NCBI GenBank assembly: GCA_024404505.1
Contig: JAKSPU010000004.1
Location: 1-59,206 of the forward strand
Length of the DNA: 59,206 nucleotides
Source: Clostridia bacterium
GTDB lineage: Bacteria; Bacillota; Clostridia; Oscillospirales; CAG-272
Direction of reading: 5' to 3'
Below are positions 7,136-59,206 of the stretch, one piece after another (positions within the stretch are counted from its first letter, which is position 1; each line of letters starts with the position of its first letter). The position numbers and the translations under genes were made by a program. The notes under the pieces are model-generated. The model made no database searches and was not told where the DNA came from. It saw only the letters and a program-made list of their open reading frames with translations.

Positions 7136-7432
7136 CATCGCCGGATGCCCCGAGCAAGCTGCCACCCTCACCACCCTTTCCCCGCCTGGGAGGCGGGGGA
7201 AGTATTTATAAAAGCAAAGAGAAGGGCCGCCCGCGGGCGGCCCTTCTCTTTGCATCCTCATCCGCAGACTACACGACTGCGGCTCATGAAAAACGTAAAC
7301 TCAATCTTGGTCAATCGTTTTCATTAAAAGTTCTTGGGATTCTCAAGGACTTCTTTCAAGAAGTCCTTGAGCGGGGTGTGGGGCAGCGCCCCACGGACGT
7401 CCTTGGAGCGTGGGGCAGCGCCCCACACGTTC
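7136..7432. repeat. Multi-hairpin intergenic repeat family, copy 1
   Basis: Hairpins at 7178-7201, 7214-7253, 7342-7371 and doubled GTGGGGCAGCGCCCCAC; homologous to 31351, 36633, 52080 and 58977. Confidence 0.85.
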
Positions 7433-7436
7433 TTCC

Positions 7437-9269
7437 TTACTCTGCATACCCATACGAATAAGCGAGCCGTCCTATGGGAGCGCTGTCGCCGCTGACGTAG
7501 TAGTCCATTATGTCGAACTGTTCGGTGACGTTGTCGGCTGCCTTGAAGCGGATGAGGCTGCCGGGCTGCACGCCGAGGAGGGACCACGGGATCGAGAGAA
7601 ACAGGTCCTTCCCTTCGAGCTTCATTCCGGCCGTGCCGACCGTCTTCCATTCGCCGTCCTTGAGCTGCTCGATCGACGTTTTGCCGTCCGACGGGCTGCG
7701 GTTGACGATAAAATCGAAGCCTGCGAAGGACTCATCGGCACCTGTGGAAAGGAGCAGATTCATCCAGCCCGTGTCCCCTTCCTCGTATGCGGTGATTTCC
7801 TCCGCGCAGGTCACGCGGACGTACAGATTCTTCTCGTCGTGGATCACGCGGATCCCGGCGATATCGTTGCGGTCGGAATCGTCCCTGTACAGGTACGTGC
7901 CTGCGGCATCAAAGTGACGGCGGGTCATGCAGTCGCCGACAAAATCGGCATACGCGACGGCACGGTCCCACGCAGGGTCCCCGGCCCCCTTCTCGATGCG
8001 GACGGATGCTATCGGAAGCGCGTAAGCAGCCGCATCGGTGTACTTGTACCGCCGAACGTTCTCAAGCAGCTGGAGATAGTAATTGTCCCCGTATCCGCCC
8101 TTCATCATCTCGATGTCGCGGCTGTATTCGTGATTGTACACGTCAACGAACTTGTTCGGTCCGAGATGCTGCGCCTGCCACTCGTTGAAGCTGGCACAGA
8201 GAACGAGCGTTACCTTGTCATCGTTTGCGTGGACGGTATCCCACATATCCTGGAACGAACGACCGGCGGTCCAATCGTCCTCGACCCTGCCCGTCACGTT
8301 GTTGTACGCGCGGCTGGATTCCGGGTGCATGAGAGACGCGTCGATGCCCGTGTGGCTGTGCTGGGCAACGGGACAGGCGATCGCGCCGTTGTGGATGTAC
8401 TGCGGGTATTCCCAGCTCATCCACGGCAGACCGTTGTCATTGTTGTCGCCGTTCGGCCACTGCGATTCACGGATCTCGAAGTATTCCTTCATCTTCCACC
8501 CGACGAAGGAGGCCTCGCCGCCATACTTGACCATGTCCGACGCGTTGTTGTTGTCCTTGGTCGTCGCAACGATCAGCGGTTTTCCGTGCGGCTTGAACCA
8601 CAGGTCGTCCCACTCCGGATGCGCTTCGTAGTAGGCTGCGTACAGCTTGTCCACGGTCGTCGCGGAATCCGTGTTGGTGTAGAAGCTGACCTTCGGGACG
8701 TCGAAGCCCTGCTGCGAGAAGTTGGTCAGCACGGACATCAGAACGTTCACGACGTCCTCGTATATGAACTTGTTCGTCGCGTCGATGCAGAGGAAGTCGA
8801 CGCCCGCCATGGTCAGAAGCTCCATGTGGCGCGTGACGACCCACGGGTCCGTCATGCTGTAATAGCCGTACAGCGGCTCTCCCCAGAAGTAGAACTGACC
8901 GTAATCCGAAACGTCGTTCAGCTGTGCGATGCCTTCCTCTCCTTCGTCGATCAGCTCCTGAATGTTGTTGATCTGCCGGGTCAGCTCGGGATGCTGACCG
9001 AGCCAGAGCGAGTAGAAGACGCCGACGTACCGCTCACCGTCTTTCTTCGCGTCGGCAGCCTGCCAGGTACGTCCGAGCGCGTCCGAGCCGGACAGGCTCA
9101 TGACGGCGTTTTGCTGCGGCGTCAGGCCGCGCTCATCTCTTTCTCCCACGGTATATTCCTCCTTTGATCCGCAGCCTGTGAGTGCTGACAGGAGGGCTGC
9201 CGTCGTCAGAAGGACGCACAGCCCGACCGACAGGCCCCTCGGCAAACGGTGATTCCGATCTTGTTTCAT
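7437..9269 (-). CDS. Lipoprotein, GH99/GH71-like putative glycoside hydrolase
   Basis: Lipobox LTGC; YVGVFY, WGEPLYGYY..D.WV, AGVDF..D.TN, SFNEW, SRDIE. Confidence 0.7.
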   Translation of the reverse strand: MKQDRNHRLPRGLSVGLCVLLTTAALLSALTGCGSKEEYTVGERDERGLTPQQNAVMSLSGSDALGRTWQAADAKKDGERYVGVFYSLWLGQHPELTRQINNIQELIDEGEEGIAQLNDVSDYGQFYFWGEPLYGYYSMTDPWVVTRHMELLTMAGVDFLCIDATNKFIYEDVVNVLMSVLTNFSQQGFDVPKVSFYTNTDSATTVDKLYAAYYEAHPEWDDLWFKPHGKPLIVATTKDNNNASDMVKYGGEASFVGWKMKEYFEIRESQWPNGDNNDNGLPWMSWEYPQYIHNGAIACPVAQHSHTGIDASLMHPESSRAYNNVTGRVEDDWTAGRSFQDMWDTVHANDDKVTLVLCASFNEWQAQHLGPNKFVDVYNHEYSRDIEMMKGGYGDNYYLQLLENVRRYKYTDAAAYALPIASVRIEKGAGDPAWDRAVAYADFVGDCMTRRHFDAAGTYLYRDDSDRNDIAGIRVIHDEKNLYVRVTCAEEITAYEEGDTGWMNLLLSTGADESFAGFDFIVNRSPSDGKTSIEQLKDGEWKTVGTAGMKLEGKDLFLSIPWSLLGVQPGSLIRFKAADNVTEQFDIMDYYVSGDSAPIGRLAYSYGYAE

Positions 9270-9291
9270 ATCCGTCTCCCGTGTTCGATAG

Positions 9292-15556: not shown

Positions 15557-18412
15557 TCAATACAGCTTAGCGGACAGGATGCGGTCGTTCTGAACGACTA
15601 CGAACAGAGTGTCACCGCAGACCTTGACGTACACGAACTGAGAGCCGGCGGAAAGGTCGGCGTCAGAGGTGACGTTGGCAACGGTCTCACCGGTGGTCTT
15701 GTCGACCACGTACAGAACGATGTTACCGGCCTGAGCCTTGGGAGCGACCAGCGCGTACTTATCGTACATACCGACAGCGTATGCGTTGGGAACGTCGTAC
15801 TCGGCGATAGAACCGTCGGAAGCAAGCACGGAAAGCTTGCCGCCGGTGGTAGCTGCATAGCAGGCACCGGCGGTATCGACGTCAAGGTAGAAGGACTCAG
15901 CCATAGCCTTGGAATCAACGACTGCGGGATTGGCGGCGTCGGTGACGTTCAGCTTGAACATCACGTTCTGCTTATCGGAGAACAGGTAAGCGATATACTC
16001 ACCGCCTACGTTGGCAACGCCGAGACCGTTCACACGCATGGACTTGCCGTCTTCAGCGCAGACACAGAGTCTGGAGACCTGAGTCAGGGTCTTGGCATCG
16101 TAGTCGATCTTATAGACCTCAAGGTAAACGTCGTTTTGGGAATCGTAGTTGGCAAGACCGACGTACAGGTAGCCGCGGTCGTCAACTGCGAGGCCCTTTG
16201 CGAATGCGTTGGCCTCGAAGGTGAGGTATGCAACGCGCTCGCCGGTGGCAACGTCGATCATGGAGACGTTGTTGGGGTTGGCGTTCAGGACGCCTGCAAA
16301 GAAGTACTTGCCGTCGGGAGAGAAGGCAGCACCGCGGGTGAAGCCTGCGACACCGAGCTGGTCAGCGTTGATGGCAAGGGTCTCCTGCAGCTTGACGTTG
16401 TTCCAGTCGATCTCGGGAGCAACGGGCTCAGCGGGCATGGACTTAGCGAAGTAAGCCTCTGCCTCCTCAGCGGTCTCGAAGAATGCGAACCATGCAACGT
16501 CGATGGAGCCGCCGTTGCCGAGGAAGTAGTCGAGACGGCAGTAGTTGCAGACGGAGGTATCGTTGAAGGAAGCGGAAGCGGTCATATCGACCACGAGAAC
16601 GTGCCACTCACCGTCGTTCTGGTACTCATAGCGTGCCTCGTCATCGCCGCCGTGCCAGCCGCCGGTGGAACCGATGAAGAACTCACCGCCGTTCGTGCCG
16701 GTGGTGCGATACTTGAGCGCACCGTACTTGGCAGACTTGGCGTTGGCGTTGAGGTTGACGACTGCGACGTAGGGGTCGCCGCCGTTGGAGGTAAGGGTGA
16801 TGAAGCCGTCGCCCATCTCAGCCGTGGTATGGGACACGGTGGAGCCGGTGCCGCCGTTGACCTGATCCATGATGAACTCGGGATAAACGATGTACACGGG
16901 ATCACCGGGGATAACGGTCTCGGACAGGGCCTTGACCTCGATAGAGGAGAAGAGAACGGTGGTTGCACGGGCAGTTGCACCGATATCGGAAGCAGCGTTA
17001 TCGACGACAAGCGTGTTCTCAACGGTGTTGACGGAGCCGTCAGCACCGGTCAGGGTAGCGGTCTTGACGAAGTGGACGTCCTGATTGGTGTGCAGACCTG
17101 CATACTCATCGATTGCGACGGAACCGTCGAGTGCGATGGAGACGAGCAGGGTCTTGCCGGCGTAGATGTTGACGACGTTGTTGTCATCGGTGATCAGGAT
17201 GTCACCGGTCTCGCAGGCATAGTTGAAGCGGTAGTTGGTAACACGGGACGGCCACTCGGCGTCATACGCCTTGATGGTGACGGTCAGACCGCCGTCGTTG
17301 CGGCTGATGCAGATGCCTGCACCTCCACAGGAGTTGCCTTCGGGATGACCGTCGGTCTCGTAGTAGTTGTTGATCGGGTAGAAGACCAGATCATTGATGT
17401 GCGTATCGGGACCAGCCACGTCATCGGAGGTGACGCCTTCGGTACCACGGACGAAGAAGTAAGCGCCTTCAGCGTTCTGGCACCAGAAGTCCTTCAGAGC
17501 AACAGAGTACTTACCGTCCATGGTCGTGACGAAGTCGCAGATACCGGCGAGCTTGTACTTGCCGTCCTCGATGCCGCACTGGTTGATGGGCAGCTCGGGG
17601 GTGAACAGGTTGAACAGGTCGGAGGAAGCGAAGTCGCTCTGGGAAGCGACGTCGGAGGTCAGGGACTTGGTCGCATCGCCGAGCACGGGCTTGCGGTAGT
17701 CGATGTTGACCTTGACGGAGGTGATGGCGACCATGGTGCCGTCAGCCAGCTTGTAGAGAGCGGTCAGGGTGTGATTACCGGACGGAATGGAGGAAACGTC
17801 TGCATAGATGTTGAAACGGGTTGCGAAGGTACCGCCGGCACCGGTCACAGCGGCGACGACACCATCTTCCGGATTAAAGAACCATTCCTCGCTGAAGACG
17901 GGCGCGTTCTTGTCGATGCGGTAGCCGAGGGCGGTGATGTCCTGCGTCGTGCCGATCCAACCCCAGAAGCGGACGGATGCGGAGTCGCTGGGGATGTCAA
18001 CGATCTCGGGGCAGGAAGCTGCCTGGCCAGGCGTGAAGAACGTGACGAGCTTATTGCCTTCAGCGTCCCAAGCCTCGCACTCGTCGAAGGACTTGGCAGC
18101 GAAGCAAGCCTTCTCGGCGTCGAGGTCGTAGATGCCGTCAGCGGGCTCGGTCTCAGCGGGCTCGGTGGGAGCCTCGGTTGCGGGCTCGGTGGGAGCGGCC
18201 GTTGCCGGCTCTGTGGGAGCATCCGTAGCGGGCTCGGTGGGAGCGTCGGTCGCGGGCTCGGTGGGAGCATCGGTCGCGGCCTGAGTGGGCTCGGCATCGG
18301 TGCCGGTCTCGGCGACGGTGGTACCGGTGTCGTCTCCGTTATTCTTACAAGCCACGAGGCAGGTCAGCATCATAGCGGAAAGAAGCAGGAGAGCAAGAAT
18401 TCTCTTGGTCAT
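15557..18412 (-). CDS. Large surface lipoprotein: TEP stalk, several beta-sandwich modules, C-terminal beta-propeller-like domain
   Basis: Lipobox LVAC; (ATDAPTEP)n; AFSPDGKYFFAG and KGLAVDDRGYLYVG blade-like motifs; start at MTKRIL. Confidence 0.75.
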   Translation of the reverse strand: MTKRILALLLLSAMMLTCLVACKNNGDDTGTTVAETGTDAEPTQAATDAPTEPATDAPTEPATDAPTEPATAAPTEPATEAPTEPAETEPADGIYDLDAEKACFAAKSFDECEAWDAEGNKLVTFFTPGQAASCPEIVDIPSDSASVRFWGWIGTTQDITALGYRIDKNAPVFSEEWFFNPEDGVVAAVTGAGGTFATRFNIYADVSSIPSGNHTLTALYKLADGTMVAITSVKVNIDYRKPVLGDATKSLTSDVASQSDFASSDLFNLFTPELPINQCGIEDGKYKLAGICDFVTTMDGKYSVALKDFWCQNAEGAYFFVRGTEGVTSDDVAGPDTHINDLVFYPINNYYETDGHPEGNSCGGAGICISRNDGGLTVTIKAYDAEWPSRVTNYRFNYACETGDILITDDNNVVNIYAGKTLLVSIALDGSVAIDEYAGLHTNQDVHFVKTATLTGADGSVNTVENTLVVDNAASDIGATARATTVLFSSIEVKALSETVIPGDPVYIVYPEFIMDQVNGGTGSTVSHTTAEMGDGFITLTSNGGDPYVAVVNLNANAKSAKYGALKYRTTGTNGGEFFIGSTGGWHGGDDEARYEYQNDGEWHVLVVDMTASASFNDTSVCNYCRLDYFLGNGGSIDVAWFAFFETAEEAEAYFAKSMPAEPVAPEIDWNNVKLQETLAINADQLGVAGFTRGAAFSPDGKYFFAGVLNANPNNVSMIDVATGERVAYLTFEANAFAKGLAVDDRGYLYVGLANYDSQNDVYLEVYKIDYDAKTLTQVSRLCVCAEDGKSMRVNGLGVANVGGEYIAYLFSDKQNVMFKLNVTDAANPAVVDSKAMAESFYLDVDTAGACYAATTGGKLSVLASDGSIAEYDVPNAYAVGMYDKYALVAPKAQAGNIVLYVVDKTTGETVANVTSDADLSAGSQFVYVKVCGDTLFVVVQNDRILSAKLY
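18140..18290 (-). repeat. Coding 24-bp tandem repeat (ATDAPTEP x~5)
   Basis: Recurring GGGCTCGGTGGGAGC on + strand; translation ATDAPTEP/ATAAPTEP/ATEAPTEP. Confidence 0.8.
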
Positions 18413-18633
18413 TGTTTTGTACCTCTCAATACAAATTCTCCCGATGCCGTAAACGCATTTTCCGGGAGTCAAATCGCATTATAGCACATTCCCGGCTTTT
18501 ATTCAATACTTTTTTTCATCGTCTTGAAAATATGTTGGAATCATCAATCTGCTCATCAGATTATTGTGCATTTTTACCATTTCACGACATTATTTCACCC
18601 TGCTTGGGAGGGCGGAATTATTTGCATCTTCTA

Positions 18634-24632: not shown

Positions 24633-26963
24633 ATGAAAATGAAAGCCTTCCATGTAAACAGAAACGCCCGCTGGGCGCTTTACCTGATCCTGTCCGTCGT
24701 CCTGCTTGCGCTCCTTGTGACGCTGGCAGCATGCAACAGAGGCGACGATCCGGGTCAGGATACGACAACCGATCAGGTGTCAGAGACGCAGCCCGGCACG
24801 GAACCCGCCCCGGACACCGACGCGCCCGCCACCGACGCCGACACGGTCCCCGAGACCGAGCCGGAAACCGAAACGGAGCCGGAAACGCAGCCCCTGTCCA
24901 ACAAAACTATTTCCTTCTACGAGGACTTCCCCGTTGAGGACGCATTCACCGCCAACGGCTACGAGCTGTCGGTCACGGCAGAGGGCGGCGAACATCTCCT
25001 GTCTGTGAAGCGCCTGTCCGATCAGGGCAAGCGTGTCACGGTCAAGTTCGACAACTACCTCAAGACCCTCGGGCTTGATACGCCTGACGCGAACACCATC
25101 CAATACATCGTCCTCAACGTGCGCAAGGGCGGTGAGGGTACCGCGTGGGAGCCTGTCTTCCTCGCCGTCGGCAAGGAGACCTTCAAGGCAGGCTCGGGCG
25201 GAACGATCAAGCAGCTGCTGATCTCCTCCTTCTCCTCCATGCCCACGGACGGCACGACGTGGTATATGCGCGACGTCTCCGTCGCGGCCTCGCTTGACGA
25301 GGCGCTGCTCATGGGCGGCATGACGCAGTATGTGCTGGGTTACGGCTCAACGCTCGATCTGTCCGCGTCCGATCCCGTCAACCACGTGAAGATCACCGCG
25401 CCCGACGAGGACGAGAGCGTATCCTTCTGGTTTGATCACTTCACCGAGAAGGTCAACTGCGACACCGTGCCGGTCAAGGACACCGTCGGGTACACGATCC
25501 AGATGGCGAAGAACGAATACGAGGCGTGCCAATTCTTCCTGTCCGCGCCGAGCGACCGACGCTTCACCGTGGAGTACACGCCCTTTACCAACGAGGCGGG
25601 CGCGTCCCTGTACACGGAGCTTCGCGTGGAGTTCTACCCCACCGAGGGCGCCGGCCTGACGATCCCCGATTGTCTGATCCCCTATGAGAACTACGTCGGC
25701 TTTGAGGTGCCGGAGGACGTCGCGTGGTCGTACGATGTGCGCGGCTGCGTATCCGTTCCCGCGGGCACGACGCGCGGCTTCGTGATCCAGGTCAAGACAA
25801 CGATGGACACGGCCCCCGGTCTGTACAGCGCCGACTTCAATATCTATGACGCGGACACGAAGAAGTGCGTCAAGACCGCGAAGGTTTACACCTACGTGTA
25901 CGACGTGACGCTCTCCGAGGAGACCGCCATGAAGACCCAGATCCTCTGCTGGAACGGCCAGTGGCTGACACCTTACCGGGATTGGGGTTATATCAATTCC
26001 GACGAGGATCAACTGACCATCCTGCGCGGGCTGTGCGACTTCCTGCTCGACTACCGCATCTGCACGCAGGGCAACTGGGGCGAGGAATGGCTGAACAATC
26101 CCCGCGTGACCTCCGTCGGCATCGGGGACGGCTCCGAGTATTCCCTTTACGTTTCCAAGAATCCCGACTGGAACAAGAAATTCGTGCTGTACAAGGTCGA
26201 CGAGCCTGCCGAGGCGCGTCGGCTCGAGGAGCTGAAAACGATCACCGAGCAGTATCGTTCCACATGGGAGAATGTCCGCGTCGTCTGCCCGTTCGAGACG
26301 GATATCCGGTACGACAACACCGACCAGATCGACTATATGTCCCGCTACGTCAACGTCTGGTGTCCGAAGTTTTACAGCTTCACGCCCCGCGACCTGAGCT
26401 TCGTCACCGGCACCCGCTACACGCAGTCCGTGTCCAATGACGAAAAGTACGGCACCTTCGAGCAGAGAATGAAGGGCTACCGCGACAGGGGCGACGAGAC
26501 CTGGATCTATGTGTCCTGTCTGCCAGAGTCGAGCGCGCCTTACCTGAACGTGATGCTGTACAACGACGGCACGCAGCCCGAGACCATCTTCTGGATGTGC
26601 TACCGCTACGATCTGACCGGCTTCCTGTACTGGAATCTCTTCTATTGGGAGAATTCCGGCTACGGCAACGGATACCTGCGCTACCCCGTCACCAAGACCG
26701 GCCCCGGCGACGGTCTGCTGCTGTACCCCGGCTGTGCTTACGGTACGAGTGAACCCATGCCCTCCATGCGTCTCGTCGGTATGCGTGACGGCATCGAGGA
26801 CTATCAGCTTCTGACCATGCTCGAAAAGACCTGCGGCAAGGAGCTGACCGACGATCTCGTCAGCCACATCGCTACCTCCGTCGTCACCTTCAACACCGAC
26901 GACGACGTGCTTCACAACGCCCGCGTGTTCATGCTGAAGACGCTGGAGGAGAACAGCAAATAA
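24633..26963 (+). CDS. Lipoprotein with DUF4091 (GH123-related) domain
   Basis: Lipobox LAAC; TEPE linker; AKNEYEACQ, VDEP, GFLYW, GDGLLLYPG, PSMRL..MRDGIEDY. Confidence 0.75.
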   Translation: MKMKAFHVNRNARWALYLILSVVLLALLVTLAACNRGDDPGQDTTTDQVSETQPGTEPAPDTDAPATDADTVPETEPETETEPETQPLSNKTISFYEDFPVEDAFTANGYELSVTAEGGEHLLSVKRLSDQGKRVTVKFDNYLKTLGLDTPDANTIQYIVLNVRKGGEGTAWEPVFLAVGKETFKAGSGGTIKQLLISSFSSMPTDGTTWYMRDVSVAASLDEALLMGGMTQYVLGYGSTLDLSASDPVNHVKITAPDEDESVSFWFDHFTEKVNCDTVPVKDTVGYTIQMAKNEYEACQFFLSAPSDRRFTVEYTPFTNEAGASLYTELRVEFYPTEGAGLTIPDCLIPYENYVGFEVPEDVAWSYDVRGCVSVPAGTTRGFVIQVKTTMDTAPGLYSADFNIYDADTKKCVKTAKVYTYVYDVTLSEETAMKTQILCWNGQWLTPYRDWGYINSDEDQLTILRGLCDFLLDYRICTQGNWGEEWLNNPRVTSVGIGDGSEYSLYVSKNPDWNKKFVLYKVDEPAEARRLEELKTITEQYRSTWENVRVVCPFETDIRYDNTDQIDYMSRYVNVWCPKFYSFTPRDLSFVTGTRYTQSVSNDEKYGTFEQRMKGYRDRGDETWIYVSCLPESSAPYLNVMLYNDGTQPETIFWMCYRYDLTGFLYWNLFYWENSGYGNGYLRYPVTKTGPGDGLLLYPGCAYGTSEPMPSMRLVGMRDGIEDYQLLTMLEKTCGKELTDDLVSHIATSVVTFNTDDDVLHNARVFMLKTLEENSK

Positions 26964-26966
26964 GAT

Positions 26967-26991
26967 GCGTGCGGGGCTCTGCCCCGCACGC
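26967..26991. repeat. Isolated terminal hairpin module of the intergenic repeat family
   Basis: GCGTGCGGGGC-TCT-GCCCCGCACGC, matching the GGGGCTCTGCCCC end module of the other copies. Confidence 0.6.
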
Positions 26992-27090
26992 CGCTCTAAT
27001 GCTTCTGAAAAGAAGGATTTTAATTATCCCGGGAACTTTCATACAGGGGAAAAATTGATCATAAATTTTGTATCACTGAAAGGAAAGACC

Positions 27091-28206
27091 ATGATCATCC
27101 AAACCGAAAGACTGATCCTCCGCCCGTGGTGTGACGCGGACGCGGAGAGCCTGTACGAATACGCAAAAGACGACCGTGTCGGCCCTGCCGCCGGCTGGCC
27201 TGTACACACAAGCGTGGAAAACAGCCGCGAGATCATCCGCACCGTGCTGTCGGAGCCGGAAACCTACGCCGTCTGCCTCAAGGAAGACAACAAGGCCATC
27301 GGCAGCATCGGTCTGATGGTCGGAAAACAAAGCAATCTCGGCCTGCCGGATGACGAGGGCGAGATCGGTTACTGGATCGGCGTGCCCTTCTGGGGCCGGG
27401 GACTGATCCCAGAAGCCGTCCGCGCACTTACCCGCCGCGCCTTTTTGGAGCTGGGTCTTTCGACGCTGTGGTGCGGCTACTTTGACGGCAATGAAAAATC
27501 AAAGCGGGTACAGGAAAAGTGCGGCTTTGTTTACCATCACGCGAACCGGGACATATATTGGAAGCTGATAGACAGGGTTCTGACCGAGCACGTCACGCGG
27601 CTGCCGAGGGACGTATGGGAAAGCAGCGTCAGGCCGTCAGACCGCATCACCATCCGTCCCGAAACGCACGGGGACTATAAGGACGTCGTTTCACTCGTGC
27701 TGCGCTCCTTCCGGGAGGGGACGGACTACTCCGACGGGACGGACATCGTCGCGCTGATCGAGGAGATCAGGGACTCGGAATACTATATTCCCGAGCTTGC
27801 GTTCGTTGCGGAGCTGGACGGAGAGATCGTCGGGCATTTCCTGTTCTCACACTTCCCATTGTCCCGGACGCCTGAAGGCGGTCACGGCGGGGCGGCGGAT
27901 ACCGACGTCGTGATGCTGGCACCCGTGTCCGTCCACGCCGATCATCTGCGCCAGGGCATCGGCTCGGCGATGATAAGGCTCGGTATCGCAAAAGTGAAAG
28001 AGATGGGATTCCGGGGCATCATCGTCGAGGGCAACTTCCGCTTTTACAATACCGTCGGCTTCCGCACATCGTCGGAATACGGCATCTTCCCGGTCAGCGG
28101 GTACCCGATGACGGAGCCGCGATGCCAGATGTGCATGGAGACATTCCCCGGCTCACTCAAGGACAGAGGCGGGTACGTCGTGTACGATATGTATTACAAC
28201 GCCTGA
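27091..28206 (+). CDS. Tandem GNAT N-acetyltransferase fusion (RimJ/RimL-like + YhbS-like)
   Basis: TERLILRPW..EIGYWIG.PFWGRG..N..S.RV.EKCGF; second domain IRPET..VAE.DGEIVGH..LAPVSV..RQGIG. Confidence 0.85.
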   Translation: MIIQTERLILRPWCDADAESLYEYAKDDRVGPAAGWPVHTSVENSREIIRTVLSEPETYAVCLKEDNKAIGSIGLMVGKQSNLGLPDDEGEIGYWIGVPFWGRGLIPEAVRALTRRAFLELGLSTLWCGYFDGNEKSKRVQEKCGFVYHHANRDIYWKLIDRVLTEHVTRLPRDVWESSVRPSDRITIRPETHGDYKDVVSLVLRSFREGTDYSDGTDIVALIEEIRDSEYYIPELAFVAELDGEIVGHFLFSHFPLSRTPEGGHGGAADTDVVMLAPVSVHADHLRQGIGSAMIRLGIAKVKEMGFRGIIVEGNFRFYNTVGFRTSSEYGIFPVSGYPMTEPRCQMCMETFPGSLKDRGGYVVYDMYYNA

Positions 28207-28308: not shown

Positions 28309-29601
28309 TTACAGCTTTGATGCCTGCTCCGCAAACCATTGCAGCATAGCCGGCTCGGTGGTGACATCGTTCTGCGGGATCCCGTACCAATGTGCGGCGC
28401 CGCCGACCTCATAGCCTCCGAACGGGAATTCATCCGCCGGGGCAAGATATCCGTTGACGGAATTCGCGTATCCGACCGTGAAGATCGCCTTTCTTTCATA
28501 GCCGGCATCGGTGAGTATCTTCTCGAGCGCGTCTCCGGTCAGCGTCAGCATCTCAAACGGCACGAACGCGAAAACGAAGCTTTTTCCGAACGCAAGCAGC
28601 TGCAAAGGGACGGTCAGGTCAAATCCCACGCCGGAATCCAGACGGCGCAGCATCGACCGTGTCCATTGCAGCTCACGGAGGGTGTAATGCTTGGTGATGT
28701 CGTCGCGGTCAAGCGCGAAATACTGCTCCTCAAGCGCACGGATCGACGAAAGCAGCGCTTCGCGGTCGGTCATAGCCAGCATGGGCAGCGTGACCTCTTC
28801 ATATGCACACGTCATGCTTCCTTCTTCCGGAGGCAGCGCCTCACCCGCGTGTGCCGATGAGGCACGGAGGACGGGATCGGTCAGCTGGCGGCCTAGCAGT
28901 TCTATCGCAGTGTCGCAATCCAGATCGCCGCCGCGCATCGGATCCACGTCGGCACCGCGGTTCTGCAGATACAGAAGCGGCACCTCGTCCGTGGACGCCG
29001 CGTTCAGCACCGACAGAAAGTCAGCGGAAACGGTCATCCCGCCGTTGATGACGGCATGGCAGGACGCCGAGCAGACGACACCGCGGAGGCATCCGTCCGT
29101 GTCTGTGAAGGACGCGCAGCGGATGGAAGGATCTATGACGTCCCGTCCGCGGCGGTTATAGCAGTTGACAAGCGTTTCCGGGGTGATATCGAACGCGAAA
29201 CGTCCCGGAACGGCGCGGTCACGCGCTTCCGCCGCGGCACGTCCGCACTGCTCACCCACCCACGCGAGGTAGTCGTAGTCCATCGGCAGCTCGTCAAGCA
29301 CCCCGCTGACGGGCGCCGCGTGCGTGTGGATGCAGCACAGCGACATATCCTCACGGGAGATGCCGGTAAGTCCGGTGATCTGATCCGAGATCAGCGTATA
29401 TACACGGGGGGAAAAGCCGATGAGGTCGAAGGACGCGATGAGGTGGAGCTTTTCTCCGCAGACGAGGACGCAGGTCTTGACGTACAACGGGTCCCGGATG
29501 CTCTCGGCGGGAGAGAGGCGGAATCCGTATCCGTCCAAAAAGTTGCCGCGCAGAGCGGGCGTGATCTCCCTTTGTGCAAAGCCGGCGCAAAGCAGAGCCA
29601 T
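28309..29601 (-). CDS. Neutral/alkaline ceramidase N-terminal-domain family protein (putative amidohydrolase)
   Basis: GFAQREITP, RDPLY, HTHAAP, NRR, CHA, SADF, GYAN...GYL...GGYE motifs. Confidence 0.7.
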   Translation of the reverse strand: MALLCAGFAQREITPALRGNFLDGYGFRLSPAESIRDPLYVKTCVLVCGEKLHLIASFDLIGFSPRVYTLISDQITGLTGISREDMSLCCIHTHAAPVSGVLDELPMDYDYLAWVGEQCGRAAAEARDRAVPGRFAFDITPETLVNCYNRRGRDVIDPSIRCASFTDTDGCLRGVVCSASCHAVINGGMTVSADFLSVLNAASTDEVPLLYLQNRGADVDPMRGGDLDCDTAIELLGRQLTDPVLRASSAHAGEALPPEEGSMTCAYEEVTLPMLAMTDREALLSSIRALEEQYFALDRDDITKHYTLRELQWTRSMLRRLDSGVGFDLTVPLQLLAFGKSFVFAFVPFEMLTLTGDALEKILTDAGYERKAIFTVGYANSVNGYLAPADEFPFGGYEVGGAAHWYGIPQNDVTTEPAMLQWFAEQASKL

Positions 29602-36947: not shown

Positions 36948-36951
36948 CCTC

Positions 36952-37792: not shown

Positions 37793-37887
37793 ACTTTTAT
37801 GTATTTTCATGCTTTGAGCATATTGCTATAATTAATACAACGGCATCATTATCTAATGGATTATTTGCACGAAAGGCAAGGGATACC

Positions 37888-38703
37888 ATGGACCACAAAG
37901 TACGACTCGGGCTGTACGAAAAAGCGATGCCCGGGGATATATCCATCCGCGACAAGCTGCTGCTCACCCGCCGCTGCGGCTTCGACTGGATGGAGATCAG
38001 CATCGACGAAACGCCGGAAAAGATGGGACGCGTGTTCGCCCCCGCAACGGCAGCAGCCATTGCCCGCGACGTGCGGGAAACGGGAGTGCCGATCGACACG
38101 ATGTGCCTCTCCGGCCACCGTAGATTCCCGCTCGGCGAGGAGGATCCCATGAATCTGGAGCTTATGTACCGTGCCGTCGATTTCGCCCGCACGGTCGGCA
38201 TCCGAATCATCCAGCTGGCGGGATACGATACCTATTACCATCCCTCCACGGAGGAAACAGCGTCCCGCTTCGGCGAAAACCTCCGGCGCGCGGTCGCATA
38301 CGCCGCCGCGAAAGGCGTCTGCCTCGGCTTTGAGACCATGGAAACGCCGTTTATGAACACCACGGAAAAGGCGATGCGGTACGTCACGGCGGTCGACTCC
38401 CCTTGGCTCGGCGTGTACCCGGACATCGGCAACGTCACGAACGCCGTCCCGGATGCCTGCGCCGACCTCGAAACGGGACGCGGTCACATCTTCGCCGCAC
38501 ATCTCAAGGAAACGAAGCCCGGCATCTTCCGTGACCTTGAATTCGGTCAGGGGCGCGTGGACTTCGACGCCTGCATCCGCACGCTGCTGTCCATTGGCGT
38601 CACGATGTTCAACTGCGAATTCTGGTACGACGGACACACCGATCCCGAAACATACATAAGGAGGAACGCAGACTATGTCAAAGCGGTATTTGCTCGGACT
38701 TGA
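37888..38703 (+). CDS. ulaE: L-ribulose-5-phosphate 3-epimerase (UlaE/SgbU)
   Basis: LGLYEKAMP, GFDWMEISIDET, MCLSGHRRFPLG, IQLAGYD, YPDIGN, HLKET. Confidence 0.9.
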   Translation: MDHKVRLGLYEKAMPGDISIRDKLLLTRRCGFDWMEISIDETPEKMGRVFAPATAAAIARDVRETGVPIDTMCLSGHRRFPLGEEDPMNLELMYRAVDFARTVGIRIIQLAGYDTYYHPSTEETASRFGENLRRAVAYAAAKGVCLGFETMETPFMNTTEKAMRYVTAVDSPWLGVYPDIGNVTNAVPDACADLETGRGHIFAAHLKETKPGIFRDLEFGQGRVDFDACIRTLLSIGVTMFNCEFWYDGHTDPETYIRRNADYVKAVFART

Positions 38704-48712: not shown

Positions 48713-48727
48713 CAGGAGGTGCTTTCC

Positions 48728-51700
48728 ATGAGACGCATCCCTACGGAAAACGAGATTCCCGTCACGCTTGATCTGCAGGACGAGCGTGCGACCGCCTTCG
48801 GGCGCGCCTGCTGCTTCATGCGGCAGGCGTACCCCAACATGGCGCTTATGACGTACGACAACAGAGTCGGACGCGGCGCGGAGCATCTGGTACTCTGCAA
48901 GCTGGTCGTCGGCATCGGTACGGGAGATGCCCGCGAATGGCTGACCTACGAGGCCTGCACCGATGAAACGACCGCCGACAATATCCCGGGCGGTCTGCAC
49001 AGCCGCACCGTCACGGAAAGCGGACACACCGTTTTCGCCGACATCTTCCCGGCGGCGCTCCCCGAGCAGGACAGGTACCGCGGTGCGGCGGTCGTGCATC
49101 TGCATTCGGATGCGCCCGGATTGTGCGTGCGCTTCGGCTGCGGGAACATCGCGTTCATGCACCACTCCCCGAACGCCGTCATGAAGGGCCCGGATATCGA
49201 CTGCGAGGAGGGCGCGGCTGTCCTGTCCGGCAATGGGCAGACCGTTACGATCACGCACACCGACCGTGACTTCTTCACCTGCGTGCGCGGAGGTTTTGAA
49301 TTCCGTGTGATCGAAAAAGCGCCCTCCGGCAGCTTCGCCGAGGGATATACCGACGCGTCCGACGCGTTCCTGATGCTCGGCTTCTCGACCGATGCCGACG
49401 AGGCGCTGTATCTCGCGTCGCTCGATCCTGACGACGAGATCAGAAAGGTGCGCGCCTACTACGACCGTATGTTCCGCGAGCTGTGGATCCACACACCGGA
49501 TCCCGAGCTTGACGAGGCGTTCACGCACGCCTACCTGAATCTCAGCTACTCGTGGCTGTACCCGCTCGGCTGGATCGAGTGCATCCAGCATTGGCCGACC
49601 ATGTTCCATATGGAGCAGACCGCCGCCGAGGAGTGGGCGGGTCACGCCTCCCGCACGCGCGATACGCTGCTCTCGCAGCTTGGCTTCATGACGAAGGAGG
49701 GCTGCATCATCGAGCTCAATCCCAACCACACCGCAAGGCGCGATTGGGGCGGCGACAACCACTTCTTCTTCCGCGAGGCCCTGCATTACATCCGCCAGAC
49801 GAACGACCTTGATTTCGCACGCACCATCGAGCCGCACATGGACAAGATCCTCGCCCAGACCTTTGGCGAGTACGACGCGGTCGGCACCGGCGTGCTGGCA
49901 TGGCACTCCCAGATCGGCAATCAGGAGGACTTTGAGTCCACACCCGGACACGGTGCCGCGCCCGGCTCGGTCGGCGTACAGATGCTGCGCGAGGCGGGCG
50001 AGCTGTACCGTATCCTTGCCGACGCGGACGGGAACGACGCGTTCCGCGATAAGTCCGCGCAGTATGACGCGTGGGCGGACTACTGCCTCGGACAATGGAA
50101 AAAGCACCTGTGGAAGCGCGATCTCGGACGCGCCGTCTGGTTTACGGACGACTACGGCGAGACCCGTCTCGACACCACCTACCACGGTATCTGCTACCCT
50201 GTCATGTTTGGTCAGGTCGACAGCTTCGACGCACAATCCTCGCTCGACCACCTGCTCCACCGGATGACGGGACACGAGGGCGAGGTGTTCCAATCCAACC
50301 ACTTCGGCGATCACTACTACGAGTGGGTGCCGACGTGGGGTATGCAAGCGGGCAGCAATATGCAGGCGTTTGCGACCGCGGCGTATGCCGCCGTTGGCAA
50401 GCACGAGGATGCCGTCCGTCCGCTCGACTTCGTCGCGCGGCGCGTGTGCGGCCCCTACCAGCGCGGCTCCTTCCCCGAGACGGCGAACGAGAAGCGCTTC
50501 GGCTACTTCTCCCCCTCCGCGGGCGTTTACGCACAGGCTGTCATCGAATCCCTGTTCGGTCTCTCCCTTGACCGCACTCAAGGGACGCTGACCGTCTCCC
50601 CCTGCTTCCCTGCCGCGTGGGATCACGCGCAGCTGCACCTGCCCGACTACGACTATCAGTACGAAAAGACCGCTGACGGCTTTACCCTCACGCTGCACGC
50701 CGACGTTCCCGTCCGCAAGACACTCGTATGGCGCACCGATCTGCTCCGCAGCGCTTCCGTGACGGTCAACGGCGTGGCTGCCGCAAGCAGTCTGACAAGC
50801 GAGTGCGGCTTCTCCGTGCTGACCTGTGAGCTGGGCTGTAATTCCGACGTGACGGTCACCGTCCGCACGGTCCCGCTCGGCGCCACCGTTTCCTGTGCGC
50901 CGTTCGCCGTGTGCGGCGAGCCGCTGACCGTCAGCGTCACGGGCGGTGAGCTGATCGGCATCGACGATCGCTGCGGCGTCCTTGACGAAAGCGGCTGTGT
51001 CCGCACCGACCTGCTCGATGAGTACGATAAGTACGGTGACTTCGGCCTCGTCAACTTCGCGCGGCGCACCGTTGCGGCGCGTGTGCGCGTCGGTGACGTG
51101 ACCGCCCTGATCCCCGTGTCCTTCACCGTCCTGCCCCGGCTTGTGTTCAGTGCCTCCTATGACGCGAACAAGCACATCGTGCGTCTGTCCGTCCGCAGCC
51201 ATCTGCCGCGGGAGATCGGGAACGCGTCTCTGCTCCTCCGATCCGGCAGCGTGACCGCCTCCGCGCGTCTCTCGGTACCGGCCGGCGGCACCGCAAGTGT
51301 CGATATCCCGTATGCAGGGATCCCGGTCCCCGGCAAAAACCGCGCTGCACTGCACGTTGACGGCGTCTTTGACGGTGAGGTCACGTTCGACGCACCGCTG
51401 GACGAGTCTCCCGAAAAGCTGCCGCTGCCTGCGGACATGATCATGCCTTACGCGGGATGGCGCGGCATCGCTTACTTCCCGCATCACGGCTGCACGGTCA
51501 TCAATCCCGACATCTTCCTCGTTGATATGCCGGAGTCCGTTACGGTCGACGGGCTGACCTTCCCGCTCGCGGGCGGATTCCTGCCCGTTGCAACGCGCAC
51601 GAACAGGATGCTGACTATCCCGGTTGACCGGGATGCCCGTAAGCTGTACGTCTTGTTCTGCGCGATGGCGGACGATCACGAGATCTGCACGCCGCTGTTC

Positions 51701-52069
51701 GACGCGGAGATCGGATGTGAAAAGGGCAGCGCCTACCTGCCGCCGCTGTACAGGAAAACGCTTTACTTCCCCGGCGACTTTGACTACGGCTTTGCCAACG
51801 GTCCCGTCGTGCAGTTCTCCACGCACACGCCCGACACCGTACGTCCGTCCGTTCTGCCGCCTCTCGCGGAGGATGACTACGCCGAAACCGTACCGCCGCT
51901 CTACCCGGTGCGCACCCTGTGGTGCCGGAACAGAGCTGCCGAGGCCGGGAACGCGGTCTTCAATCTGCTTGAATTCGACCTCGGCGTGACGCGCCGTATC
52001 AACACCCTTACCTTCATCGCCCGTGCCTCCGACGCTGCCGGCGGCGTGTTCGGGATCACGTATGTCTGA
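48728..52069 (+). CDS. Large cytoplasmic putative (alpha/alpha)6 glycoside hydrolase-like protein
   Basis: AGGAGG RBS; TPDPELDEAF..A..NL, G.FPE, SAG.Y...IESLFGL, LTVSPCFPAAWD resemble GH78/GH94/GH116-like cores. Confidence 0.55.
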   Translation: MRRIPTENEIPVTLDLQDERATAFGRACCFMRQAYPNMALMTYDNRVGRGAEHLVLCKLVVGIGTGDAREWLTYEACTDETTADNIPGGLHSRTVTESGHTVFADIFPAALPEQDRYRGAAVVHLHSDAPGLCVRFGCGNIAFMHHSPNAVMKGPDIDCEEGAAVLSGNGQTVTITHTDRDFFTCVRGGFEFRVIEKAPSGSFAEGYTDASDAFLMLGFSTDADEALYLASLDPDDEIRKVRAYYDRMFRELWIHTPDPELDEAFTHAYLNLSYSWLYPLGWIECIQHWPTMFHMEQTAAEEWAGHASRTRDTLLSQLGFMTKEGCIIELNPNHTARRDWGGDNHFFFREALHYIRQTNDLDFARTIEPHMDKILAQTFGEYDAVGTGVLAWHSQIGNQEDFESTPGHGAAPGSVGVQMLREAGELYRILADADGNDAFRDKSAQYDAWADYCLGQWKKHLWKRDLGRAVWFTDDYGETRLDTTYHGICYPVMFGQVDSFDAQSSLDHLLHRMTGHEGEVFQSNHFGDHYYEWVPTWGMQAGSNMQAFATAAYAAVGKHEDAVRPLDFVARRVCGPYQRGSFPETANEKRFGYFSPSAGVYAQAVIESLFGLSLDRTQGTLTVSPCFPAAWDHAQLHLPDYDYQYEKTADGFTLTLHADVPVRKTLVWRTDLLRSASVTVNGVAAASSLTSECGFSVLTCELGCNSDVTVTVRTVPLGATVSCAPFAVCGEPLTVSVTGGELIGIDDRCGVLDESGCVRTDLLDEYDKYGDFGLVNFARRTVAARVRVGDVTALIPVSFTVLPRLVFSASYDANKHIVRLSVRSHLPREIGNASLLLRSGSVTASARLSVPAGGTASVDIPYAGIPVPGKNRAALHVDGVFDGEVTFDAPLDESPEKLPLPADMIMPYAGWRGIAYFPHHGCTVINPDIFLVDMPESVTVDGLTFPLAGGFLPVATRTNRMLTIPVDRDARKLYVLFCAMADDHEICTPLFDAEIGCEKGSAYLPPLYRKTLYFPGDFDYGFANGPVVQFSTHTPDTVRPSVLPPLAEDDYAETVPPLYPVRTLWCRNRAAEAGNAVFNLLEFDLGVTRRINTLTFIARASDAAGGVFGITYV

Positions 52070-52079: not shown

Positions 52080-52226
52080 TGCAGGGCTCTGCCCTGCACC
52101 CGCTCAAGGACTTCATGAAAGAAGTCCTTGAGAATCTCAAGAACCTTTATATAGGGTCGATAATAGTACAAGGTTTCGTTTATACTGATGGAAACGGCGG
52201 GTGCCCAGATGGGTACCCGCCGTTCC
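52080..52226. repeat. Multi-hairpin intergenic repeat family, copy 4 (partial, inverted)
   Basis: TGCAGGGCTCTGCCCTGCA, CTCAAGGACTTC..GAAGTCCTTGAGAATCTCAAGAAC, GGCGGGTGCCC-AGAT-GGGTACCCGCC. Confidence 0.8.
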
Positions 52227-56573: not shown

Positions 56574-57706
56574 AAAAAGTCAAGAGCAACGACGGCATCG
56601 CCGCGTGGAAGATCGACAACGGGCTTGAGCGCTTTCTCGGAAAGTGCGCCGACCGCGGCGAGTTCGGGAAACGGCTGTACGTAGGCTTTTACCGCCTCTT
56701 TGACGCCGAATACTACAAGAAGGGTCTCAAGTTCATCGACCGCAACATCGAGGCCTTCGTACCGGGCGGCGTGACCGAAAAGCAGCATAAGCAGTATGTC
56801 CGCGATATGGTCTACTCGCTGCACCGCTTCGGCTGTATGTTCGACGAGTATTTCATGTTCAGATACCCCGTACTCAACACCAAGGGGCGCGAGGCGTTCA
56901 TCACGGACAAGAAGCGCTGGGATTACTACGCCCGCATGAACAGGGACGAAAACAAGATCCTGTTCAACGACAAGGAGAAGGCGTACGAACTGTTCGGTAA
57001 GTACTATCACCGTGAGTTGATCAAGATCACCGGCGAGGGCGACAAGGAGCTGTTCAGCGCGTTTGCCGCACGTCACACGCGGTTTATCGTCAAGCCGTAT
57101 GACGGCAGCGGCGGCAAGGGCATCGCTATCCTCGATTCCGCCGACTTTTCCGACACGGACGCGCTCTTTGCCGAAGTCCTGAGCCGCGGCACGACCGTCT
57201 GTGAGGAGCTGATCAAGGAAGTCCCCGAGCTTCAGGCGCTGCATCCCTCCTCCATCAATACCGTCCGCGTCCCGACCGTGCTGGCCGGCGGAGAGGTACA
57301 TATCTTCTGCCCGTTCATGCGTATCGGCAAGGGCGGCTCGGTGGTGGATAACGCCGCCTCCGGCGGTGTGTTTGCCGCGGTCGACCCGGACACCGGCATC
57401 GTGACGAGCAGAGGCATCGACGAGCACGGACATGAGTTCCTCGTACACCCGGACACCGGCTTCGTTATCCCCGGCTTCCGCATCCCGCGCTGGGACGAGG
57501 CGGTCGCGCTGGTCAACGAGCTTGCCCGCGTCGTGGAGGGCAACCACTACTGCGGATGGGATCTGGCCCTCACCGAAGACGGCTGGATCATGGTCGAGGG
57601 GAATCCCCGCGGTCAGCTCGTGGAGCAGTATGTCACACACAACGGATGCCGTGAGGAGCTTGAAAAGCTGATCGGCATCATCGAAAAAGAGAATACGGAG
57701 GCTTGA
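56570..57706 (+). CDS. Sugar-transfer-associated ATP-grasp protein (ATPgrasp_ST)
   Basis: IVKP.DGSGGKGI, SINTVR, VDN..SGG, HPDTG, GWDLA, VEGN. Confidence 0.8.
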   Translation: MKKVKSNDGIAAWKIDNGLERFLGKCADRGEFGKRLYVGFYRLFDAEYYKKGLKFIDRNIEAFVPGGVTEKQHKQYVRDMVYSLHRFGCMFDEYFMFRYPVLNTKGREAFITDKKRWDYYARMNRDENKILFNDKEKAYELFGKYYHRELIKITGEGDKELFSAFAARHTRFIVKPYDGSGGKGIAILDSADFSDTDALFAEVLSRGTTVCEELIKEVPELQALHPSSINTVRVPTVLAGGEVHIFCPFMRIGKGGSVVDNAASGGVFAAVDPDTGIVTSRGIDEHGHEFLVHPDTGFVIPGFRIPRWDEAVALVNELARVVEGNHYCGWDLALTEDGWIMVEGNPRGQLVEQYVTHNGCREELEKLIGIIEKENTEA

Positions 57707-58767
57707 TCATCGTGTGGATCAACAGACGGATATACGAGCTGCGCGGCATCAAAAAGATCCTTGAACAGCCCACCTACGAAAAGGACAAGCCGCGTAAATC
57801 CAAGGCAAAGCGCCGCAAGGAGCTCTTGAAATGGCTTCGGAAATACAAGGAAGTCAATAAGTTCTATAACCTCTACGGCTGCGACGTGGAGGGAGTCGAT
57901 CCGGAGACCTTCGTGGATTATCGTATCAACTTCATGGGCAACCGCGACAGACTGAATTACTCCGGCAAGCCCTTCTCGCAGGTCGGTCTGCTTCAGGACA
58001 AGTTCCAATTCTATAAGTACATGAGCGTCAACGGTATCCCCGTGGTACCCGTTTTCGCGTTCCAGTGCGACGGCAGGCTGTACGACGTAAATATGAATCC
58101 GGTCGACCCGGACGCCACCCTCGGGCATGAGACCAACCTCTTCGTGAAGTGCATCGACGGTCTGGGCGGCGACGGCGTGTACCATTTCAATGACTACGAG
58201 GCATACAAGGCAGCCGCGGACAAGCTCGCGCACGGAAAGTTCATTATCCAGCACGGGATCAGACAGGCGGCCGAAATCAACGCTATGTACAGCGGGGCGA
58301 TCAATACCCTCCGCCTCGTCACGACGAACGACGGGCAGAACGTATCCGTCTTCGCGGCCGCGTTCCGGATCGCGACCTCCTACTCCGGCAAGGTCGATAA
58401 CCTGAGCGCGGGCGGCATCGCCGTCGGCGTGAATCCGGACGGCTCGCTGAGGCCCCTCGGCAAGATCAAGAAGCTCAAGGATAACTTCGACACGTCGCTT
58501 TCGGAGCATCCCGATACGCACGTCGTATTCGCCGATTTCCGGATCGCGGCCTACGATCAGGCCGTCGAGCTGGTCAAGAAGGCTCACAGGTTCTTCTATA
58601 ACGTCCCGAGTATCGGCTGGGACGTGGTGTTCACCGAGGACGGCGTGCAGCTGCTTGAGGGCAACGATAACTGGGGAATGTCCCTGATCCAGAGCACGAA
58701 CGGCCCGATGCGGGAAAAGTGGCTGGCTTTCGTGGCACAGATCGACGCCGCCCGGAATCAGAAGTGA
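57703..58767 (+). CDS. Sugar-transfer-associated ATP-grasp protein (ATPgrasp_ST)
   Basis: DK, FVK..DG.GG.GV, INTLRLVT, VDNLSAGG, HPDT, IGWDV, LEGN; TTG start overlaps the upstream stop, GGAGG RBS. Confidence 0.75.
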   Translation: MIIVWINRRIYELRGIKKILEQPTYEKDKPRKSKAKRRKELLKWLRKYKEVNKFYNLYGCDVEGVDPETFVDYRINFMGNRDRLNYSGKPFSQVGLLQDKFQFYKYMSVNGIPVVPVFAFQCDGRLYDVNMNPVDPDATLGHETNLFVKCIDGLGGDGVYHFNDYEAYKAAADKLAHGKFIIQHGIRQAAEINAMYSGAINTLRLVTTNDGQNVSVFAAAFRIATSYSGKVDNLSAGGIAVGVNPDGSLRPLGKIKKLKDNFDTSLSEHPDTHVVFADFRIAAYDQAVELVKKAHRFFYNVPSIGWDVVFTEDGVQLLEGNDNWGMSLIQSTNGPMREKWLAFVAQIDAARNQK

Positions 58768-58783
58768 CAAAGGAGAAGTCCGC

Positions 58784-58900
58784 ATGAGCGAACTCACGAC
58801 GTTGGTAAAGACGCTGAGCCGGGACATTTCCGCGATCTGGAAAGATGAATCGTTCGGGCCGTTCGACGAATTATACCAGTTTTCGTACGATGCCTTGTGA
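58784..58900 (+). CDS. Short 38-aa ORF or truncated gene remnant
   Basis: AAGGAG RBS, ATG 16 bp after the operon's last stop; MSELTTLVKTLSRDISAIWKDESFGPFDELYQFSYDAL. Confidence 0.35.
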   Translation: MSELTTLVKTLSRDISAIWKDESFGPFDELYQFSYDAL

Positions 58901-58976
58901 TTTCAGCGTTCGGGGACCTACCCCCTCCCGTGCGCGGGAAATAAAGGAAGACCTGCGCTCTGCCGTCTGAAACCCA

Positions 58977-59206
58977 GCGTTTCCGCATCGCCGGAAGTGC
59001 TGTTAAACCTTTTTCCCTCCCCCCTGCCCCCCGCCCCACAGGCGGGGGGAAACTTTATTATTAAAGCAGGGAGAAGGGCCGCCTGCGGGCGGCCCTTCTC
59101 CCTGCACTCTCATCCTGCGGGACGCGGCCTTTATGTAAGAGTGGGTCAGGGGTCCCCGCGACTGCGTTTCAAAAAAGGCGGGCGCCCATGACGGCACCCA
59201 CCAATC
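58977..59206. repeat. Multi-hairpin intergenic repeat family, copy 5 (runs off window end)
   Basis: GCGTTTCCGCATCGCC start, hairpins A, B (59066-59105), D (59177-59202); close to the reverse complement of 31515-31656. Confidence 0.85.

Follow-up and report, generated by a model that had tools for sequence, protein, structure and literature searches.

Mosaic extragenic hairpin repeats with a terminator-like module are abundant in the genome of an uncultured gut Clostridia bacterium

The forward strand of contig JAKSPU010000004.1 from a Clostridia bacterium (Oscillospirales, family CAG-272; assembly GCA_024404505.1) was analysed over positions 1 to 59,206, and this whole stretch of 59,206 nt (contig C164) is called the window here. 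A preliminary description of the window had reported a family of intergenic repeats composed of several hairpins, named A, B, D, E and F in the following. This observation is real and was understated. BLAST with the five window copies, after merging of the loci, returned 490 loci in the host draft genome (2.95 Mb on 229 contigs, 60.7% G+C, rated 89% complete), which add up to 75,721 nt or 2.6% of the genome and lie on 196 of the 229 contigs. We regard it as probable that these are abundant mosaic extragenic palindromes, seeded by elements of the MITE type (miniature inverted-repeat transposable elements) and by nested insertion, and kept in 3' untranslated regions (UTRs) and operon spacers as stem-loops, with one module, D', ending transcripts.

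All five copies were found in the window (7136-7432, 31351-31656, 36633-36947, 52080-52226 and 58977 to the end), and the module order first given for them, A-B-D-E-F(n), also holds over 485 module-defined loci of the genome. Modules A, B, D and E were counted with iterated nhmmer profiles and F by pattern, giving 190 copies of A, 173 of B, 214 of D, 311 of E and 446 of F. The commonest strings among the 485 loci are EF (56), A (43), DEF (41), AB (34), DEFF (21), EFF (21) and ABDEFF (14); many architecture strings are cut short by contig ends, and 263 of the 490 BLAST loci lie within 300 nt of such an end. The F hairpins, 13-17 nt long and mostly in direct tandem, are repeated one to five times per locus, and A-B, D and F are each found alone too. 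Neighbouring modules are separated by 14-18 nt at the D-E junction (185 pairs), by 2-4 nt at the A-B junction (118 pairs) and by 25-71 nt between B and D. Because junction spacing defines the units, what had been described as one element is in fact two units that are often adjacent, A-B and D-E-F(n). Intergenic spacers hold both units, or E-F(n) alone. More repeat modules lie to the left of A and to the left of D, and the left border of the D-E-F units is formed by the T-run of D'. The anatomy is a fixed-order mosaic of several motifs with a variable number of one of them, as in elements of the bacterial interspersed mosaic element (BIME) or BOX type, and nested insertions and tandem arrays occur. 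In the DNA contigs of four sequencing runs, the depth of repeat bins was about 3 to about 50 times that of the flanks (413 versus about 7 in X1), and the contigs of these runs end at element edges; none spans an empty site. No RNA sequencing run covering window positions 29000-38000 turned up.

The repeats show a strong relation to the ends of genes. Of the loci, 212 are farther than 400 nt from any contig end; 93 of these fall in convergent spacers (44% of loci versus 16% of all spacers) and 19 in divergent ones (9% versus 18%), an excess and a deficit with a chi-square p of 1e-27. For the window itself, the statement that four copies sit between convergent genes agrees with the gene calls based on open reading frames (ORFs) made here. 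In co-directional spacers, F faces the upstream gene in 46 of 61 E-containing elements (p 9e-5). The first F hairpin starts 5-19 nt past the stop codon in 57 of 96 loci and abuts the stop in the closest cases, and in six cases an E-F-only unit sits inside an operon, 23-37 nt ahead of the next start. When GC skew was used as a test of replication versus gene orientation, genes were not co-oriented with the sign of the skew (813 versus 915).

Module D is strand-specific. It folds with -29.3 kcal/mol on the gene strand versus -20.2 kcal/mol on the other, and the gene strand folds better in 181 of 188 copies. On the gene strand only, it has the canonical form of an intrinsic (Rho-independent) terminator, D', which is a G+C-rich hairpin followed by a T-run; five or more T are present in the 8 nt after 126 of the 129 D' hairpins found by pattern, while 76 of the 205 examined D hits lay outside the pattern. 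A scan of the window calls the D' hairpin of copy 3 terminator-like, and in this copy the left gene has its terminator-like hairpin in A, the right gene in D'. The fold of copy 3 as a whole reaches -68.8 kcal/mol (z -4.85) on the gene strand and -58.6 kcal/mol (z -3.52) on the other. Since F adjoins stop codons and D takes the form of a terminator on that strand alone, D-E-F works in the orientation opposite to that in which it was first read. On the gene strand the unit consists of one to five F hairpins, an E hairpin of 13-14 bp and then D' where present, and thus reads as a predicted 3'-UTR cassette ending in a putative terminator. The earlier proposal of a 3'-end structured RNA fits as far as position is concerned, since the repeats lie at gene 3' ends and one module is predicted to be an intrinsic terminator; the strand is the opposite of that proposed.

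Orientation and strand also bear on the reading that the repeats are DNA-level sites without an RNA role, such as cruciforms or protein-binding sites for nucleoid organisation, recombination or DNA uptake, that tolerate 3' intergenic positions. The palindromes of E and B are near-perfect and symmetric and conserved primary sequence lies beside the stems, as would suit such sites, but the strand-specific terminator form and the orientation relative to the gene speak against them. Moreover, the stems are free to differ in sequence as long as they pair, a point against sequence-specific binding by a dimer. We give this reading very little credence.

The stem variants of hairpins E and B quoted in the preliminary description are present in the window copies, and genome-wide the stems covary. 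In 126 clean genome copies, hairpin E is Watson-Crick in 1244 of 1260 cells, and its stem occurs in discrete types seen 45, 37, 11, 8 and 4 times, plus singletons. For hairpin B, the pairs predicted by RNAfold in 137 copies number 19 per copy at the median and comprise 2529 of Watson-Crick and 29 of G-U type. In the fold of copy 3, F is a small hairpin nested inside an outer GGGG/CCCC helix, and therefore the G-run before F tracks the length of the hairpin. A set of 55 sequences from the window and related species has 92.8% of cells paired and 10 of 19 pairs changed on both sides, and its pair-counting score was reached by none of 500 shuffles. The 29 matches from other genera have 96.8% of their cells paired, with changes on both sides at 17 of 20 pairs, in a model-fitted alignment that leans to the model structure. 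Changes on both sides are thus strong within the genome and across genera, and they uphold the claim that the structure is under selection or maintained by the copying mechanism; we read them as selection or as copying and repair.

With covarying stems at the ends of genes, a cis-acting structured RNA has to be weighed as a rival. Here E-F would be a 3'-UTR or intercistronic motif on which purifying selection acts and which a protein or RNase recognises in trans, with copies arising mainly from recombination or gene conversion and mobility being incidental. Conserved unpaired runs adjoin the covarying stems across genera, and the placement right after stop codons and inside operons is consistent, both in favour of this view. 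Between genera, moreover, three segments change together, namely the upstream run and the two sides of the E apex, with C-to-T changes accompanied by G-to-A ones, which suggests alternative pairing. However, hairpin E lacks strand asymmetry, its mismatches being five G-T versus five A-C and its fold energy equal on both strands, and hundreds of near-identical copies per genome need a copying process. A match to a known Rfam family was not obtained either: the whole window gave none at the gathering score, and a permissive scan of copy 3 returned generic hairpin noise far below it. Taken with the evidence from relatives given below, a structured RNA of this kind is the strongest of the rivals and in our judgement unlikely.

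The E-F part of the repeat is shared with relatives. With the E-F core (the last 80 nt) as query, BLAST gave matches in 21 of the 24 same-genus genomes; A, B and D were found only in the host genome. The core retains 80-90% identity between species in which the coding DNA beside it cannot be aligned, a further point in favour of the structured RNA; as such DNA fails to align within the genus, proteins were used to assign orthology. R1, a covariance model of the E and F hairpins with a core of 82 nt, found matches in 35 of the 100 further family genomes scanned, with hits counted up to 45 per genome, and in 10 of 134 genomes belonging to seven other families of the order, and the alignments show the same architecture. 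To judge from these matches, the E-F core is old and widespread in the order. The exact 30-nt pattern gave no matches in the species genomes because relatives carry other stem variants; a degenerate core pattern gave at least 61 loci, and among the matches listed all were in metagenome-assembled genomes (MAGs) of uncultured gut bacteria labelled Eubacteriales, Clostridia or Oscillospiraceae, except for one Selenomonadaceae-labelled contig. The plasmid and phage collections searched held no core match, and one viral contig carried the degenerate core pattern.

The core in the relatives forms one arm, the right one, of a long palindrome, with a diverged inverted F'-E' arm on the left and terminal inverted repeats (TIRs) bounding the element, which as a whole is an inverted doublet of F-E arms. 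Matches to the TIR motif in these loci number 93, with left-right pairs 190-510 nt apart round the core and other inner modules. A target duplication of AATT may accompany them, with no empty site aligned. The statement that TIRs are absent is therefore correct for the host genome and does not extend to the relatives, in which the same core lies in TIR-bounded elements. Together with nested insertions and tandem arrays, such carriers count against the structured RNA.

Several further arrangements were seen in the same material. Elsewhere in the host genome, off the window, the E stem is interrupted on contigs C159, C162, C151, C219, C61 and C208 by a separate element about 76 nt long that has TIRs of 16 nt and is flanked by a 6-nt duplication (CTYAAG), a MITE of the classical sort with the E hairpin as its target. 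In relatives L015, L016, L017 and L065, E and F have a palindromic module about 77 nt in length nested between them, and the same module is found inverted inside a different TIR-bounded element (L069:4645-4965). Head-to-tail arrays, each unit with an E hairpin, occur in one related MAG, with three copies at L055:2433-2826 whose units are 179 nt apart, and two copies at L034:2616-3008 that are 357 nt apart. The Selenomonadaceae-labelled core contig (L011) has a flanking ORF 70% identical to a host-genome protein and is probably mis-binned or mislabelled.

The preliminary description had proposed a comparison of orthologous loci for empty sites, and differences in presence and absence were found, between species rather than strains. 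Since orthologous sites are filled, empty or variant, elements are gained and lost and yet some sites persist across species. At eight syntenic sites filled in a relative, the host genome has no module at any (0 of 8), which counts against the structured RNA; in four of these cases the spacer is short and clearly empty. Behind the Gln-tRNA synthetase gene, just 1 of 27 loci is filled, namely that of the host genome. The spacer before this gene, compared in 21 species, holds the R1 core in eight, other repeats in four and variants in two. In the remaining seven it is hairpin-free and about 55 nt or less, three of these spacers being remnant-like, with the linker kept and both hairpins lost. The E' stems in this spacer differ between species and are always paired, as a structured RNA would have it. 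In this same spacer (G000:C174:12756-12870, with the orthologues L130-L151), seven species also share a conserved leader just before the start codon, about 70 nt long and with a separate hairpin.

A mobilising enzyme was sought in the host genome and its relatives. The lead candidate of the preliminary description was an element derived from repetitive extragenic palindromic (REP) sequences or REP doublets forming hairpins (REPIN), or from IS200/IS605 insertion sequences (IS), moved as single-stranded DNA hairpins by a Y1 HUH transposase (TnpA, or RAYT, the REP-associated tyrosine transposase) in trans. The elements are rich in hairpins, the F units are short G+C-rich palindromes in tandem, and TIRs and target duplications are lacking in the host genome, all of which would suit this mechanism, and Y1 genes do exist in the family. 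However, the host genome, at 89% completeness, gave no match to Y1_Tnp (PF01797) and none to the TnpB zinc-ribbon family, so that the lack of a transposase noted in the window extends to the host genome for these two. Y1 was above the family cut-off in 10 of 29 same-genus genomes, and its presence in 24 of 100 family genomes is not associated with the core (11 of 35 core-positive versus 13 of 65 core-negative genomes; Fisher p 0.23). It occurs in 9 of the 19 genomes with at least nine core hits, a cut made post hoc that allows no valid test, but genomes G062, G066, G076, G099, G106 and G121 have from 24 to at least 45 core hits and no Y1. None of 16 different Y1 loci of relatives had modules or the core nearby, and their hairpins were not shared. 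Likewise, of the 15 single genes between two neighbouring elements in the host genome, the ten scanned against Pfam were ordinary genes or had no match. The results thus speak against a Y1 enzyme acting in trans, which we consider quite improbable.

A non-autonomous rolling-circle element of IS91- or Helitron-like type would have a fixed F end with a subterminal hairpin and GTTC, and a variable other end produced by read-through, and would yield the nested series EF, DEF, BDEF and ABDEF. IS91 targets GTTC/CTTG. The nested series indeed has a common F end, GTTC is present at the left edge (GTTCTTG) and at the right edge (CGTTC), and the lack of TIRs and target duplications in the host genome would agree. 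On the other hand, the left ends fall at discrete module borders and are not ragged, and A-B, D and F also stand alone. No Y2_Tnp match (Y2/IS91) was found in 29 genus genomes, a test that is uncalibrated as the control genomes were silent as well. The HUH, DNA-site and rolling-circle readings, in this falling order of probability, are all weaker than the structured RNA, and the last of them is in our view the least probable of all. Three other candidates were set aside: integron attC sites, as the elements are scattered over 196 contigs instead of forming arrays; E-F as coding sequence, because the stem changes are not conservative at the protein level; and DNA uptake sequences.

We therefore return to mosaic extragenic palindromes of MITE-type origin as the preferred explanation. 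The modules would have spread by MITE-type transposition and by nested insertion into each other, and copies would then have been retained where they are harmless or useful. We infer that they are co-transcribed as 3'-UTR or intercistronic stem-loops, in which case they could block 3' exonucleases, as with REP elements, and D' would end the transcripts.

A number of points weigh against this explanation. Transposition of the host-genome forms is deduced and not demonstrated, because neither TIRs nor target duplications can be made out: the TIR motif of the relatives has only one match in the 2.95 Mb of the host genome, and 15 E-F-only host units compared had no target duplication (mean longest shared flank word 3.8 versus 3.92 when shuffled), as first noted for the window. 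No autonomous partner with the same ends was found: 20 DDE_Tnp_1 loci of the genus were not bounded by the relatives' TIRs; other transposase families were not searched, and draft genomes often lose IS copies. That 8 of 21 species have the core in the spacer ahead of the Gln-tRNA synthetase gene fits long persistence in place and function as well as, or better than, selfish mobility. The gene context rests on our own crude gene calls from ORFs and G+C content at third codon positions (GC3), and A-B-only units have no gene orientation (19 of 36). The orientation rule was shown for the host genome only; in a cruder ORF test, a gene end was found within 120 nt of the F side in 12 of 22 matches from other genera and 30 of 62 from the same genus. 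Finally, the repeat copies are kin, so that copy counts represent few independent events seen many times, and hairpin-templated repair at the DNA level may also keep palindromes perfect, with no RNA function needed.

It is conceivable, although doubtful, that the E-F core is a true structured nucleic-acid motif kept across the order, with a dedicated and as yet unrecognised partner. If so, this partner would be either a protein that binds RNA, or an RNase, on which the fate of hundreds of mRNA 3' ends depends, or a hairpin-copying enzyme other than HUH; in both cases a new partnership of repeat and enzyme would result, akin to REP-RAYT but with another catalyst. In that event a structural switch would underlie the three-way co-variation between the upstream run and the two sides of the E apex.

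Among the five window copies, every module is present only in copy 3 (36633-36947, minus strand), a complete A-B-D-E-F. Its hairpin A lies at 36676-36704 (terminator-like on the plus strand), B at 36720-36760 and E at 36888-36917; the D' terminator runs from 36828 to 36803 on the minus strand and is followed by ATTTTGG. The F unit occupies 36919-36949, with the inner hairpin at 36925-36939 within the GGGG/CCCC outer helix, and the stop of the minus-strand gene 36952-37794 lies 4 nt beyond the copy. Copy 1 (7136-7432, minus strand) is A-B-E-F-F in the orientation of the preliminary description and lacks the D hairpin. Its hairpins are A at 7180-7198, B at 7214-7253, E at 7342-7371 and F at 7378-7394 and 7410-7426, and its F end is 4 nt from the stop (7437-7439) of the minus-strand gene 7437-9269. 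Copy 2 (31351-31656, plus strand) follows the gene 29723-31321 and, in the orientation first used, starts at B. It consists of F' units at about 31351-31425, including an extra CTGAAGGGC hairpin, E' at 31427-31456, the D' terminator hairpin with its T-run at 31514-31548 and B at 31616-31656. Copy 4 (52080-52226, plus strand) has only a D-like hairpin (52191-52225), E' (52103-52132) and F' (52081-52099), and the stop of gene 48719-52069 lies 10 nt before it. Copy 5, to which no strand was assigned, comprises A-B and the start of D and is cut by the window end; the repeat shared with other A copies reaches upstream of the start first given, 58977, to about 58925, so that the copy spans 58925-59206.

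The repeat described as a solo end module at 26967-26991 does exist, but it is part of a decayed F'E' unit at 26964-27045 (plus strand) in an operon spacer. Its F' hairpin (26968-26990) begins 4 nt past the stop of gene 24633-26963 and is followed by remnants of the E' loop and the adjoining conserved run. For the overlapping ORF 26965-28206, which encodes a GNAT acetyltransferase, the likeliest start is the ATG at 27092, the preceding stretch being the decayed F'E' repeat and non-coding.

Other repeated DNA in the window was also noted. Six tandem 24-nt repeats lie at 18131-18313 inside a long minus-strand ORF (15557-18472) and match positions 348-449 in ORF 109-1680 in inverted orientation, which suggests a shared low-complexity repeat coding region. 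Between 53008 and 58767, a repeated stretch of DNA is common to three adjacent genes, probably a run of paralogues; the gene 57703-58767 in this run matches the sugar-transfer ATP-grasp family.

In the literature, the motif strings were met only as single chance matches in two unrelated papers, and nothing specific came from word searches aimed at repeats or MITEs of these taxa. REP elements are mentioned in PMC3184786 and PMC8040213. The latter, the human-microbiome screen of Fremin and Bhatt, lists 250 palindromic candidates, which may include this repeat motif, so that an earlier sighting is possible.

The repeats matter in practice, since they break assembly, with more than half of the loci at contig ends, and knowledge of them is of use in the assembly and annotation of a large group of uncultured gut Clostridia. 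They would probably supply the transcript ends for a large share of genes and in this way shape operon expression, as far as this can be predicted from sequence. The E-F covariance model is ready for use as a marker and is a candidate for a new family in databases of RNAs or repeats. That the repeats spread with neither terminal repeats nor target duplications nor a recognised transposase raises the question of how such elements move, and the copying mechanism and the order-wide conservation of the core are the parts worth following.

The E. coli REP and BIME elements are hundreds of extragenic G+C-rich palindromes in fixed-order motif mosaics, located after stop codons, between convergent genes and in operons, for which a role as 3' stem-loops stabilising the upstream mRNA has been proposed. 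The Clostridia repeats resemble them in copy number, in the fixed-order mosaic, in the same sites at gene ends and in operons and in the proposed role of the 3' stem-loops. In difference to REP and BIME, they are from another phylum, show no sequence likeness and have no RAYT partner that could be found. Their modules are longer (E 30 nt, B 41 nt, D-E-F about 175-250 nt), and one of them has the complete form of an intrinsic terminator. REPIN are short imperfect palindromes of about 20-40 nt, often in inverted doublets. Palindromes of the IS200/IS605-derived and REPIN-RAYT systems share with the present family the hairpin ends and the lack of TIRs and target duplications in the host genome, but their defining Y1 enzyme was unlinked to the repeat in every test made here.

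BOX elements are built as A-Bn-C. The review PMC10969869 describes SPRITE of Streptococcus pneumoniae as a terminator-like dispersed repeat, and BOX, RUP and SPRITE as clustering and inserting into one another. The Clostridia family shares with these a Firmicutes host, a variable number of an inner module (here one to five F), a terminator-like repeat (D') and clustering with mutual insertion; the likeness of D' to SPRITE concerns the way of working only, as BOX, RUP and SPRITE were compared by description and not by sequence. Unlike the pneumococcal repeats, it is far more abundant (2.6% of the genome), spans an order of uncultured gut Clostridia and has a strong orientation relative to genes. 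With the Neisseria Correia elements and other MITEs (PMC10969869), the 190-510-nt TIR elements of the relatives share long palindromic bodies, co-location with genes and differences in presence between genomes. The host copies differ from them by having neither TIRs, apart from the single motif match, nor target duplications; moreover, the best conserved part is internal (E-F) and not terminal, and no parent IS is known. The family is not a member of any of the families tested here, and the best reading is that of a new family of REP/BIME/BOX-like mosaic hairpins, of a kind known from other bacteria.

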